The notes under the pieces: model-generated
What the model was told of the DNA's origin: nothing
Database searches by the model: none
What the model saw: only the letters and a program-made list of their open reading frames with translations
IMG/VR virus record: IMGVR_UViG_3300025072_002801
Source: a virus
Lineage: Duplodnaviria; Heunggongvirae; Uroviricota; Caudoviricetes
Length of the DNA: 64,000 nucleotides
Direction: 5' to 3' (one strand)
Made by a program: the position numbers and the translations under genes
In this document: in pieces, positions 57,326-60,257 of the stretch
How the letters are laid out: every line of letters starts with the position of its first letter
Numbering within the stretch: the first letter of the stretch is position 1

Positions 57326-58294
57326 ATGTCTAAAGATTATTGGTCTGGCGAGTTTGTTGATCTGTTAAACGATGGAGTCGCTGAGGACAAAAAAGAACAG
57401 TCTTCTATTCCGCAAGTTGAAAACATAGATGAAATTGTGGAGAATGGAAAAGACAGTCTCATGCGAGAGTTTGAAAAGTTGGCTTTACTGACAGCTTCTA
57501 ATCTTCATAAGGGCGTTTTGTCAGATGCAGATGTTGATGTTGGAAAGTTAATGAGACAGTTTGAGAGCGACCTTGCAAACAGAATGTCAAGAACACTGTT
57601 AAGTGTGCAAGCAAGTCCCATGCCTCCTGGCACACGTTTCGCTTTGCCGTTTGGCAATTCCATTGTTTACGTAATTGAGCATGAGCCATGTGTTCGTTCC
57701 ATCTATCATAGCCAAGGAATAAACGGTAAAGCATCCTTAGCGTTTCCATATATGGTTTTTGGGACGTTGGTGGACAAAAATAGAATACCAGGGCATCTAC
57801 ACATTGGATGCTCTAACAAGTCTCTCTCAAGCCTTGATGATCGTCTTGAACGAATTCACCTTTCTAACATTTATCAGAGTTTTAACAAGATGGGGGTTTG
57901 CGATTCTTCCATTAGTGGTGGCTCGGCTGCAAAAAAGGGGTCAACGGTTGCAGAAAAGGTAGAGGCAGTGATAACACAGTTCTGGGCTTCTCAATGGAAC
58001 GGAGCAGGAATGACAAGTGAGTGCAAGGATTCGAAAGTTACCACTATTGCCAGTTGGGAGAAGAATACAAAAAAAGATCCAATGTTTTCATTGAAGGTAA
58101 AGTGGCAGTCCGCTGGCATTAATGTTCGTCAATTTGCTGAAGGTCTTGCTGGATCAAAGATAGATGAAGAAAAGAAAAGCCATGCTCGATTGGACACTGA
58201 TTTCAGAGGTCTTGGAAGAGAGTTGGTTGGCAATGTCACAAATGCTCTAAATTTGCGTTTGGAAGAACAGGGGATTACATTCCGTGATGAATAA
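57326..58294 (+). CDS. Hypothetical protein, paralog of 52660-53832, with a possible UBC/E2-like core
   Basis: RIHLSNIYQSFNKMGVCDSS resembles the E2 H(P)N...G.(I)C active-site stretch; beta-strand-rich region preceding it. Confidence 0.5.
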   Translation: MSKDYWSGEFVDLLNDGVAEDKKEQSSIPQVENIDEIVENGKDSLMREFEKLALLTASNLHKGVLSDADVDVGKLMRQFESDLANRMSRTLLSVQASPMPPGTRFALPFGNSIVYVIEHEPCVRSIYHSQGINGKASLAFPYMVFGTLVDKNRIPGHLHIGCSNKSLSSLDDRLERIHLSNIYQSFNKMGVCDSSISGGSAAKKGSTVAEKVEAVITQFWASQWNGAGMTSECKDSKVTTIASWEKNTKKDPMFSLKVKWQSAGINVRQFAEGLAGSKIDEEKKSHARLDTDFRGLGRELVGNVTNALNLRLEEQGITFRDE

Positions 58295-58619
58295 TGAATA
58301 CAATGACAACACATTTTCAATGAAAAGGCTTTTGAACACGTATAAAGAGTTGCATGGACTTAATGTAAGTGAAACTGGTCCTGTAACTAAAGAAAACGTT
58401 TTCGTTGGCGCAAGAGTGGCGAGCGCCCCTGATTGGATTTATGGGGATCAAAATAGATACGATCACCAGGGCCGTCCAGTGGCGGTAACGCCTGGAATGA
58501 GCCTTGCTGGAACTGTTGTCTCAGCAGATAAGTATACTACGCATGGTGTTTGTGTCGAGTGGGACACTGGCTACAAAGATGTCTACAGACATATAGATCT
58601 AGTTTTTTTTGAAAGTTAA
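58284..58619 (+). CDS. MIB/HERC2-domain protein, tandem paralog 1
   Basis: VGARVASAPDWIYGDQNRYDHQGRPVAVTPG...VCVEWDTGYKDVYRHIDLVFF matches the MIB/HERC2 consensus G.RVVRG.DW.W..QDGG.G..G.V......V.WDNG....YR....DL. Confidence 0.75.
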   Translation: MMNNEYNDNTFSMKRLLNTYKELHGLNVSETGPVTKENVFVGARVASAPDWIYGDQNRYDHQGRPVAVTPGMSLAGTVVSADKYTTHGVCVEWDTGYKDVYRHIDLVFFES

Positions 58620-58622
58620 AAA

Positions 58623-58943
58623 ATGTCTGGGAACACAAACTCTCTTGCAAATCTTATTGGTAGATGGTCAAAGTTGTATGAATGTGAATTGTCTCTAGGT
58701 CCTGTAACTAAAGAAAATGTGTTTTTTGGCGCAAGAGTTGTAAGAGGCCCTGATTGGATATATGGTAATCAAGACAGAGAAGGAAACTATGGATATGAAT
58801 ATGCGCATCAAGACGATGATTGTAAATATATTGGAACTATTGTAGGAGGTCCAGACATGGATGGATATGCGTTGGTCATATGGGATACTGGTTGTCAAGA
58901 CTACTATAGAATTGAAGATTGGCAAGATTTATTGTTTGCTTGA
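58623..58943 (+). CDS. MIB/HERC2-domain protein, tandem paralog 2
   Basis: FGARVVRGPDWIYGNQDREGNYG...GTIVGG...ALVIWDTGCQDYYRIEDWQDLLFA: the closest of the six to the Mib1/HERC2 consensus. Confidence 0.8.
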   Translation: MSGNTNSLANLIGRWSKLYECELSLGPVTKENVFFGARVVRGPDWIYGNQDREGNYGYEYAHQDDDCKYIGTIVGGPDMDGYALVIWDTGCQDYYRIEDWQDLLFA

Positions 58944-58954
58944 AAGTTAAAAAA

Positions 58955-59275
58955 ATGAATGAAGAAACAAATTCTCTTGCAAATCTTATTGATAGATGGT
59001 CAAAGTTGTATGAATGTGAAATTGATGTAATTGCAACAGTTGACAATATTTACATTGGCGCAAAAGTGTGGAAAGGTCCTACTTGGGGATGGTGGGTCGA
59101 AGCTGACGAACAAGTTTTCGGAAAAGAACAAGAAGGAGAAGGAGCAGGAGTGGGAATTGTTCGCTCCATGCCAAGAAAAATTAACGGTCAAATGTATGTC
59201 AATGTCGAATGGGAAAGTGGCGTTAGTAATGCATATTCAATAAGTCCAGAACAAGATCTCGTGTTGATTATATGA
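58955..59275 (+). CDS. MIB/HERC2-domain protein, tandem paralog 3
   Basis: IGAKVWKGPTWGWWVEAD...GIVRS...YVNVEWESGVSNAYSISPEQDLVL; N-terminus MNEETNSLANLIDRWSKLYECE almost identical to paralog 2. Confidence 0.7.
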   Translation: MNEETNSLANLIDRWSKLYECEIDVIATVDNIYIGAKVWKGPTWGWWVEADEQVFGKEQEGEGAGVGIVRSMPRKINGQMYVNVEWESGVSNAYSISPEQDLVLII

Positions 59276-59637
59276 TTGTTCCAAAATCTATTAAATGTGT
59301 TTTTGAATCGTGGATAGAATTGAATGGCATTACATACAATTCTCGCATTTATGAACAAAGAAAATGCTGTAGAGCAGTAAGTGAATGCGTTAGGCAATGG
59401 GATGTGTATTGTGGTGGTAATTTATTTTTGAATAATAAAAATGTATTTGTTGGAGCAAAAGTTCAAGATTTGTGTGGAGCCCATCGCCAATACGATGGCG
59501 AAATTGGAACGGTAATAGATGTTAGTAAAGTTTCCTATCCAGAGTGGCCGCAAGCACACATGGATGTTGTGATTCAATTTGATGGAGTTAAAATGTCTGG
59601 GTTTTATTATTACGAAGATTATGTATTTGTTGATTGA
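59272..59637 (+). CDS. MIB/HERC2-like domain protein, tandem paralog 4 (divergent)
   Basis: VFVGAKVQDL...GEIGTVIDV...VVIQFDGVKMSGFYYYEDYVFV. Confidence 0.55.
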   Translation: MIVPKSIKCVFESWIELNGITYNSRIYEQRKCCRAVSECVRQWDVYCGGNLFLNNKNVFVGAKVQDLCGAHRQYDGEIGTVIDVSKVSYPEWPQAHMDVVIQFDGVKMSGFYYYEDYVFVD

Positions 59638-59640
59638 ATT

Positions 59641-59955
59641 ATGAATAAAAATAACGACAACACTTTTGTGATGGAACGTCTTGTGGATGTGTGGGGAGAG
59701 TTAAATGGATGCGTAATTGAAGACGAAGTTGTTACAAAAGAAAATGCATTTGTAGGGGCAAGAGTCGCAAAGGGTCCAGACTGGGATTGGGGAGATCAAA
59801 ACATTAATCCAAGAAGTGGGTTAGAAATGTATGGGAAAATTTTACGGTTGGACTCCGAAGATGAGTTCAACGAATATTGGGTGCAAGTCGAGTGGGAGAA
59901 TGGAAGGGGAGACTCCTACAGAGTATATCCACAACGAGAGTTGGTGTTCGCATGA
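59641..59955 (+). CDS. MIB/HERC2-domain protein, tandem paralog 5
   Basis: VGARVAKGPDWDWGDQNINPRSGLEMYGKILRL...YWVQVEWENGRGDSYRVYPQRELVFA. Confidence 0.75.
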   Translation: MNKNNDNTFVMERLVDVWGELNGCVIEDEVVTKENAFVGARVAKGPDWDWGDQNINPRSGLEMYGKILRLDSEDEFNEYWVQVEWENGRGDSYRVYPQRELVFA

Positions 59956-60257
59956 ACAGACATAACGACAACACTTTTGTGATGGAACGTCTTGTGGATG
60001 TGTGGGGAGAGTTGTATGATTGTTCAATTAGACCGAAAGGTGTAATTACAAAAGAAAATGCATATGTCGGAGCAAAAGTAATGAGAGGACCAGATTGGGG
60101 AGAATTATATGATTGTTCAATTCTATCACCAGAAGAATTGACGTGGACATGGAATGAATACGTTGAAGCGTTATCAAGAAAAAAACAACCAGTTTCATAC
60201 GACGATATGCGAAATGTTGGCGATAATGAACTGTTGCATATTAGGAGAATGAAATGA
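59952..60257 (+). CDS. MIB/HERC2-domain protein, tandem paralog 6 (C-terminal half divergent)
   Basis: MNRHNDNTFVMERLVDVWGEL...VGAKVMRGPDWGELYDCS; the first 20 codons are near-identical to paralog 5. Start set at the internal ATG overlapping the previous stop. Confidence 0.6.
   Translation: MNRHNDNTFVMERLVDVWGELYDCSIRPKGVITKENAYVGAKVMRGPDWGELYDCSILSPEELTWTWNEYVEALSRKKQPVSYDDMRNVGDNELLHIRRMK

Follow-up and report, generated by a model that had tools for sequence, protein, structure and literature searches.

Organization of the array

This study concerns six small tandem genes, here called P1 to P6, in a window of viral DNA assigned to the Caudoviricetes (IMG/VR record IMGVR_UViG_3300025072_002801). 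The window is the whole 64-kb stretch that was analyzed, and all coordinates refer to it unless another contig is named; it consists of a long run of same-strand genes with five tRNAs. The six genes are consecutive paralogous open reading frames (ORFs), all on the plus strand between positions 58287 and 60257 of the ORF list. They fill a slot between two border genes, and are arranged as follows.

57326 to 58294, plus strand: gene for a protein of 322 amino acids, function unassigned; conserved left border of the slot
58287 to 58619 (alternative GTG start at 58284), plus strand: P1, 110 amino acids; leader helix followed by a full MIB/HERC2-like domain
58623 to 58943, plus strand: P2, 106 amino acids; leader helix followed by a MIB/HERC2 domain
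58955 to 59275, plus strand: P3, 106 amino acids; leader nearly that of P2, followed by a divergent MIB-like domain in which GPTWGWW replaces GPDWxWG
59272 to 59637, plus strand: P4, 121 amino acids; leader-like helix, 30-residue insert and a degenerate SH3-like barrel lacking the GPDW motif
59641 to 59955, plus strand: P5, 104 amino acids; helix at residues 7–21 and the best-preserved MIB/HERC2 domain at residues 30–104
59952 to 60257, plus strand: P6, a chimera of 101 amino acids whose parts are described below
60445 to 60663, plus strand: gene for a protein of 72 amino acids; conserved right border of the slot

The junctions between the six ORFs are tight, being either ATGA overlaps or spacers of 3–11 nucleotides (nt), and the start of P1 overlaps the stop of the upstream 322-residue gene by 8 nt. 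From P1 to P6 the ORFs lie in frames 0, 0, 2, 1, 1 and 0, three frames being used in all, and each has its own ATG start, its own leader helix and its own stop. A 25-nt motif (AAAATGnnTTnGTnGGnGCAARAGT, encoding ...N-V-F-V-G-A-K/R-V) is present in one copy per ORF with a spacing of 303–395 nt. Outside the array, tblastn searches with the six proteins, two leaders and the tail of P6 found no extra paralog, leader copy or tail copy in the 64-kb window.

Domain identity

The preliminary description of this DNA had reported six tandem MIB/HERC2-domain paralogs. Six tandem paralogs are present, but owing to P4 and P6 the complete domain is not found in all of them, and can be recognized only in P1, P2, P3 and P5. 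Against Pfam PF06701 (MIB_HERC2), whose gathering score is 33.5 bits, P5 (42.0 bits) and P2 (34.5 bits) pass, P1 (24.9 bits, E = 2e-5) and P3 (10.1 bits) fall below the cutoff, and P4 and P6 give no match. By this strict measure only two of the six paralogs carry the domain; P1 and P3 count as MIB-like only via paralogy and profile alignment, P1 being alignable to P5 over its whole length, and P3 sharing 41% amino acid identity with P2. A profile made from the five alignable paralogs of the window itself matches MIB1 (4xi6) in the PDB with E = 8.7e-15; when stand-alone metagenomic relatives are added, the values become 1.5e-27 for MIB1 and 1.9e-14 for HECTD1, and the SH3-like barrel superposes best on solved MIB/HERC2 domains. 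P4, compared with a profile from which it had been excluded, reaches an hhalign probability of 16%. As judged from these comparisons the family comprises four full-domain members (P1, P2, P3 and P5), one degenerate member (P4) and one truncated chimera (P6).

In MIB1, MIB2, HERC2 and HECTD1, the eukaryotic E3 ligases in which PF06701 is known, the domain is part of a larger protein; the phage proteins are instead stand-alone, about 105 residues long, and have an added N-terminal helix. No RING, HECT, ZZ or ankyrin part is found with them: all six are of 101–121 residues and contain no further Pfam domain, and hence neither RING nor HECT lies in the same polypeptide. They also differ from the eukaryotic ligases in forming a tandem array in a phage-like genome, with two of the six copies lacking a recognizable MIB domain.

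An exhaustive profile search of 1.84 billion representatives returned 341 matches at E ≤ 1e-3. Among those examined, multi-repeat MIB proteins were the commonest, for example P0003 (982 amino acids, 10 MIB repeats) and P0015 (8 repeats); some matches combine the domain with RING, ZZ or SH3_15, others with bacterial-type PPC or caspase domains, and stand-alone MIB proteins of 77–125 residues are common among the relatives. The abundance of multi-repeat proteins, a unit length in the array (303–395 nt) that is near the repeat length of those proteins, and the degenerate state of P4 and P6 would all agree with a history in which the six ORFs were left behind when one long multi-repeat MIB protein decayed through frameshifts. 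We find this history very hard to credit, however, in view of the different frames, of the separate ATG, leader helix and stop of every ORF, of the tight junctions, and of the common occurrence of small stand-alone MIB genes among the relatives; furthermore, the identical ORF structure is recovered from several independent samples and assemblers at 99.98–100% identity. That the paralogs are frameshift fragments of one gene, which the preliminary description had named as a finding that would refute its reading, is itself refuted by the same observations.

Near-identical 5′ ends

It had also been noted earlier that P2 and P3, and likewise P5 and P6, share near-identical 5′ coding sequence while the remainder has diverged, and this is confirmed by two pairs of repeats, blocks A and B, and by the level of synonymous divergence around them.

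58602 to 58688 (core 58641 to 58688), plus strand: block A, copy 1; 3′ end of P1, spacer and first 66 nt of P2
58934 to 59020 (core 58973 to 59020), plus strand: block A, copy 2; 3′ end of P2, spacer and first 66 nt of P3
59651 to 59702, plus strand: block B, copy 1; 52-nt exact repeat inside the 5′ end of P5
59962 to 60013, plus strand: block B, copy 2; 52-nt exact repeat inside the 5′ end of P6

The two copies of block A are 83% identical over 87 nt, and their core (47 of 48 positions identical) includes a 28-nt exact run; the similarity between P5 and P6 extends over 78 nt at 87% identity (59641-59718 and 59952-60029) and includes the exact run of block B. When the positions of the mismatches were permuted, runs this long were obtained in 10 of 100,000 trials for P2/P3, and in 1 of 100,000 for P5/P6. 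There are no synonymous differences inside the blocks. Codons 11–20 of P2 and P3 differ by one non-synonymous and no synonymous change (97% nucleotide identity), and those of P5 and P6 by none at all, while outside the blocks the proportion of synonymous differences (pS) is 0.44–0.74, near saturation; for the rest of each of these two pairs it is 0.44–0.67, and the nucleotide sequences there are about 50% identical. Tracts of identity free of synonymous differences in otherwise saturated paralogs, the pattern left by gene conversion or unequal recombination, are thus found. In RNA folding the four 5′ regions did not exceed shuffled controls in stability (z = +0.80, +0.59, −0.50 and −0.65).

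Since these tracts stand without synonymous change on a saturated background, and since no signal of RNA structure accompanies them, recombination at the 5′ ends is supported, and the helix-coding stretches of P2/P3 and of P5/P6 are shown to have been homogenized recently. The preliminary description had proposed ongoing gene conversion or duplication of a substrate-binding module; the recombination at the 5′ ends is well supported, but the part that it affects is the N-terminal helix, not the barrel, which is the diverged part. The leader of P1 (NDNTFSMKRLL...) is like that of P5 and P6 in protein sequence, with saturated synonymous sites, and because of this combination we consider the helix to be under selection also at the protein level.

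Two further candidates were rejected. An 81-nt similarity between P1 and P2 (58377-58457 and 58698-58778, 83% identity) contains many synonymous differences and did not arise by recent exchange; it lies over the conserved MIB motif (the GPVTKENVF-GARV-PDWIYG region) and represents ordinary motif conservation. A diversity-generating retroelement target was discarded, without a systematic search of the window for a reverse transcriptase, on the grounds that the repeats belong to the constant part and show mixed rather than adenine-specific mismatches. The variable parts of P1 to P6 have no nucleotide repeat in common, according to the repeat analysis of the window. The ratio of non-synonymous to synonymous substitution rates (dN/dS) between the paralogs cannot be interpreted, since dS is saturated; it is plausible that the paralogs are a diversifying recognition family.

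P6 and P4

The preliminary description had pointed out that GELYDCSI is repeated in P6, and the repetition indeed exists as a direct repeat of 27 nt.

60003 to 60029, plus strand: P6 internal repeat, copy 1; 27 nt, W-GELYDCSI, end of the leader
60096 to 60122, plus strand: P6 internal repeat, copy 2; 27 nt, 25 of 27 positions identical, both differences synonymous

From its N-terminus P6 consists of a P5-type leader, the first 22 residues of the MIB domain, the second copy of the leader end (GELYDCSI) and a 43-residue tail. Compared with a profile made without it, P6 gives an hhalign match confined to residues 29–50, and its tail contains no MIB-like sequence in any reading frame. After ...VMRGPDW the sequence resumes directly with GELYDCSI, and the sequence at the junction, TGGGGAGA, occurs both in the leader (VWGEL; GTG TGG GGA GAG) and in the MIB motif of P5 (DWGDQ; GAT TGG GGA GAT). 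P6 probably arose by an earlier deletion at this microhomology (TGGGGAGA), which would have joined the initial third of a MIB gene to another gene; the second parent may have been a neighboring non-MIB gene with the same leader, contributing the leader end and the tail, and no parent gene was found. P4 may be a decaying copy.

Variants in contigs from other samples

The full locus is present at 99.98–100% identity in contigs L001, L003 (128,966 nt), L007, L008 and L009, which come from several samples in ENA, JGI and Logan, and a protein identical to P2 (P0004) occurs in JGI, ENA and Logan contigs, the longest contig recorded for P2 reaching 389 kb. Two further pairs of contigs differ from the window by the loss of a single unit. 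L010 (JGI 3300017703) and L011 (JGI 3300017718) lack exactly 332 nt of the window and are otherwise identical to it; in both, P1 is followed by a hybrid of the P2 leader and the P3 body, with the junction in the 28-nt exact block (58661-58688). L005 and L006 (both Logan) equal the window minus 311 nt, with one base differing near the end of L006, and carry a hybrid of the first codons of P5 and the body of P6, with the junction in the 52-nt block B. Unit-length deletions creating hybrid genes are thus seen in contigs otherwise identical to the window.

The two deletions differ in the weight that they can bear. Logan contigs are built at k = 31, below the length of the 52-nt exact repeat, and for this reason the Logan contigs cannot settle the matter. 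The usual metagenome assemblers work, in their later and final rounds, with k-mers longer than the 28-nt block, and for this reason the 332-nt deletion in the JGI contigs is probably real.

The same evidence bears on a different account, according to which the identical 5′ stretches are kept by selection at the nucleotide level (a translational operator, an RNA element or a protein-binding site) and the deletions are assembly artefacts. As such an account would have it, block A reaches across the spacer and the putative ribosome-binding region ahead of P2 and P3, and the Logan deletions can be explained by collapse of the 52-nt repeat at k = 31. Yet the 5′ folds are no stabler than the controls, block B begins at codon 4 and excludes the upstream region, and P1 and P4 have a leader-like helix without these nucleotide blocks; moreover, the junction in the JGI contigs falls in a block shorter than the usual final-round k-mers, and P6 is itself a fixed recombination product. 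We therefore regard selection on the nucleotide sequence as an improbable cause of the identity.

Some observations on the contigs stand on their own. Contigs from different assemblers stop at the edges of block B: L007 ends 30 nt into copy 1 (59680), and L004 and L010 end at 59961, one base before copy 2; these ends are compatible with branching of the assembly graph at the repeat or with a mixed population. L002, which had been thought to carry a different gene before P5, was rejected as a variant, since the gene is P4 cut by the end of the contig. Megablast and blastn searches with the locus found no match among GenBank phages. The family profile found nothing in the genome contig collection, and neither it nor an exact pattern from the 52-nt block found anything in the metagenome contig collection, which evidently lacks the JGI samples that carry the phage.

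Small MIB proteins in other phages

The preliminary description had called the domain eukaryotic in type and unusual in a phage. Its rarity is borne out: tblastn searches with P5 and with a canonical viral MIB protein found nothing in 50,697 GenBank phages, and in IMG/VR a profile made from the window only found nothing, and a broader one 11 loci. It is nevertheless recurrent, as two PHROG families match it, other viral arrays exist, and proteins with PPC or caspase domains carry it. The array proteins have no PADLOC or informative PHROG match, and no annotated homolog. In the literature searched, MIB/HERC2 appears only as a eukaryotic E3 module and no link to phages or bacteria was found; phage MIB/HERC2 proteins of the stand-alone, helix-tagged kind seem not to have been described there.

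The most informative of the viral loci are on two 136-kb IMG/VR phage contigs, L012 and L013, each with at least five adjacent small MIB genes and two more 7 kb away, which encode a conserved C-terminal amphipathic helix. Identity between the two contigs is about 97% in the flanks of the array and mostly 98–100% through the first three paralogs; in paralog 4 the ends are conserved but the middle is only 45–50% identical, paralog 5 has been exchanged for other sequence, and L013 is longer by about 450 nt. These differences provide independent evidence for recombination hot spots in arrays of this kind, with the helix-coding ends acting as homologous anchors.

The tandem arrays of IMG/VR 3300044684_000278 and 3300045836_000189 (also 3300044712_000275) resemble the array of the window in being made of adjacent ORFs with one MIB-like barrel and one amphipathic helix each, and in that replacement between close relatives is confined to the array, with the helix-coding ends conserved. 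They differ from it in that the helix is C-terminal (...LDxALDxLxxxL...) rather than N-terminal, in having no nucleotide similarity to the window, and in their neighbors, which include an AAA+ ATPase, a macro domain and a WGR domain (read by eye from translations, not checked against Pfam).

In L013 (8720-11231 and 17622-18234; likewise in L012), the two small ORFs just upstream of the MIB array, 8720-9067 and 9070-9402, have a C-terminal amphipathic helix apparently similar to that of the MIB genes, as judged by eye, which suggests that the 136-kb contigs may carry a wider family of the form "variable small domain plus constant helix". Several stand-alone metagenomic MIB proteins (P0085, P0091 and P0133) have a common short tail, ...QLEFDF or ...LEFNF, which could be a docking motif.

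The variable slot and the ubiquitin-like conjugation genes

Both border genes of the slot have homologs in a related phage lineage, which encodes a sigma-70 gene. The 322-residue protein, which had no match in Pfam, PHROGs or PADLOC, is represented in this lineage by homologs at 46% identity, and the 72-residue protein is 41% identical to L029 3296-3520 (E = 3e-15). In L027 a ThiF gene is followed by small genes and then by the 322-residue homolog, in the same order as in the window. In L029 the slot between the homologs of the border genes contains three unrelated small genes, and no ORF that matches either MIB profile. Because the slot of L029 is free of MIB genes, we read the array as a lineage-specific filling of a variable slot, and not as a conserved partner of the E1 and ubiquitin-like (Ubl) genes. 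In IMG/VR neither the ThiF protein nor the 322-residue protein of the window had a match, and conservation of the E1, E2, JAB and Ubl neighborhood across lineages was not observed.

The genes in question lie about 2 kb upstream of the array, and are listed here with their Pfam bit scores where available.

51448 to 52071, plus strand: Prok-E2_D (27.9 bits, cutoff 25)
52072 to 52584: Nuc_deoxyri_tr2, between Prok-E2_D and the next gene
between Nuc_deoxyri_tr2 and JAB: gene for a protein of 390 amino acids, function unassigned
54000 to 55163, plus strand: Prok-JAB peptidase (23.9 bits), motif HSHADFNAFHSGTD with intact HxH...S..D
55164 to 55916, plus strand: ThiF-type E1 (47.7 bits)
56040 to 56387, plus strand: candidate Ubl, 115 amino acids, low-complexity N-terminus and ThiS-like end ...FIRQAGVKG*

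The region 51448-56466 is predicted to be a near-complete prokaryotic ubiquitin-like conjugation set in a phage-like genome, the identity of the Ubl being read from its sequence; the only PADLOC match, a marginal one to BilD, concerned the E1 (E = 0.0048). The Ubl gene is flanked by a promoter-like site (55925-55953, 11 of 12 positions) and a strong intrinsic terminator (56433-56466), whose 15-bp stem leads into a T run. Beyond it, a strong promoter-like site next occurs at 61409-61437 (again 11 of 12), ahead of a tRNA-Met. As it is bounded by this terminator and this promoter-like site, the array is placed in a block that runs from 56491 to 61342. Five tRNAs (Met, Met, Pro, Trp and Asp) are found just downstream of this block, at 61446-63344.

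The proximity of the two systems invites the idea that the helix-MIB proteins are interchangeable substrate receptors, that is E3-like adaptors, for the Ubl-E1-E2-JAB set of the phage, with the constant helix docking on the E2 or E1 and the barrel selecting the target. The Prok-E2_D, JAB, ThiF and Ubl genes are all on the same strand as the array and within 7 kb, and eukaryotic MIB/HERC2 is a recognition module in RING and HECT E3 ligases (PMC3673628, PMC11887331). By general analogy, known substrate-receptor families have a similar layout, with a short constant element attached to a binding domain that varies. The arrangement of the genes argues in the opposite direction: the strong terminator at 56433-56466 separates the Ubl gene from the array block, and the related lineage keeps the ThiF gene and a small downstream gene syntenic with the 322-residue homolog while its slot has no MIB-like gene. 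Furthermore, no E1, E2 or JAB is evident in about 15 kb around the array of L013 (translations read by eye, not scanned against Pfam), and three short contigs with other stand-alone MIB genes show none of the three. On balance an adaptor role for the array proteins seems unlikely. If it were true, a bacterial virus would use MIB/HERC2 to choose conjugation targets as eukaryotic E3 ligases do, and a prokaryotic or viral origin of the E3 recognition module would be indicated.

Proposed evolution and function of the array

The explanation that we favor, with moderate confidence for the whole of it, is that this part of a large phage genome forms an accessory island specific to its lineage, occupied by a recombination-driven family of small peptide binders. 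Each protein would consist of a constant N-terminal amphipathic helix of about 25 residues and a variable stand-alone SH3-like barrel of the MIB/HERC2 type, and the family would gain, lose and reshuffle its members by homologous recombination between the short helix-coding stretches. Taken by itself, this evolutionary mechanism is quite likely, and it is an ordinary one for phage accessory gene families. In T4-type phages repeated promoter/stem-loop cassettes are associated with repeat-mediated shuffling of small accessory genes, and the likeness is close in that short repeats by small non-essential genes lead to recombination, deletions, hybrids and differences in gene content. In contrast to those cassettes, the repeats described here are not intergenic but lie in the coding sequence of the leader helix, and recombination between them yields in-frame hybrid proteins.

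Concerning function, the region of MIB1 that comprises MIB-HERC2, ZZ and MIB-HERC2 (MZM) binds a short peptide epitope (N-box) of JAG1 and Delta (PMC11887331), and MIB/HERC2 is a protein-binding module that has been acquired repeatedly by HECT ligases (PMC3673628). By comparison with these proteins the members of the array might be small proteins that bind peptides or proteins of the host or of competitors, and the helix they share might serve for docking or oligomerization, a possibility that we put forward only tentatively. In that case the intact members P1, P2, P3 and P5 would act as host-takeover or counter-defence factors.

Several considerations weigh against this explanation. The function of the array proteins is inferred only, by analogy, and diversifying selection on the barrel is, with dS saturated, not demonstrated. 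The 332-nt deletion is probable rather than proven, and an assembly collapse is conceivable; the 311-nt deletion, which is seen in Logan contigs only, could be a collapse of the tandem repeat in assembly. Every contig recovered belongs to the same strain (99.98–100% identity), and there is accordingly no between-strain series. Finally, no virion or structural gene was found in the window, in which ten ORFs were scanned against PHROGs; the assignment to a jumbo phage is well supported but not proven from the window, the signs being indirect.

The assignment to a phage rests on the gene organization, the tRNA cluster, the DnaJ homolog, the helicase, the promoter and terminator signals of bacterial type and the sigma-70 gene of the related lineage. 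The tblastn matches of the DnaJ homolog include uncultured phage records of 595–642 kb and Agrobacterium phage Atu_ph07, and the best match of the helicase is in a 309-kb (jumbo) phage.

Together with the independent arrays, the locus indicates that large phages carry stand-alone helix-tagged MIB proteins as fast-changing multigene families. The array is a compact natural collection of variants on a single peptide-binding scaffold, and a clear small-scale example of how short in-frame repeats enable deletion and fusion of family members.

Other features of the window

A second multi-copy family is found at 5-11383. The ORF at 5-1519 has five DUF4379 (treble-clef zinc finger) repeats and a weak DnaJ signal, and the ORFs at 4939-6075, 8557-9594 and 10274-11383 match the same two PHROGs of unknown function (13199 and 2771). 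On the minus strand, the ORF at 20134-21213 encodes a transposase (phrog_506, E = 4.9e-131); in the surrounding interval 20001-22000 the GC content is 33.5% versus about 39%, and the GC skew, which is constantly positive elsewhere, falls to zero, so that this patch looks like an inserted mobile element. The window also encodes a LAGLIDADG endonuclease (18184-19734), a full three-domain thiamine pyrophosphate-dependent enzyme (25445-27070), an aldehyde dehydrogenase (31634-33103, E = 4.7e-126) and, on the minus strand, a T4-type RNA ligase (38523-39905), which are an unusual metabolic cargo for a phage-like genome.

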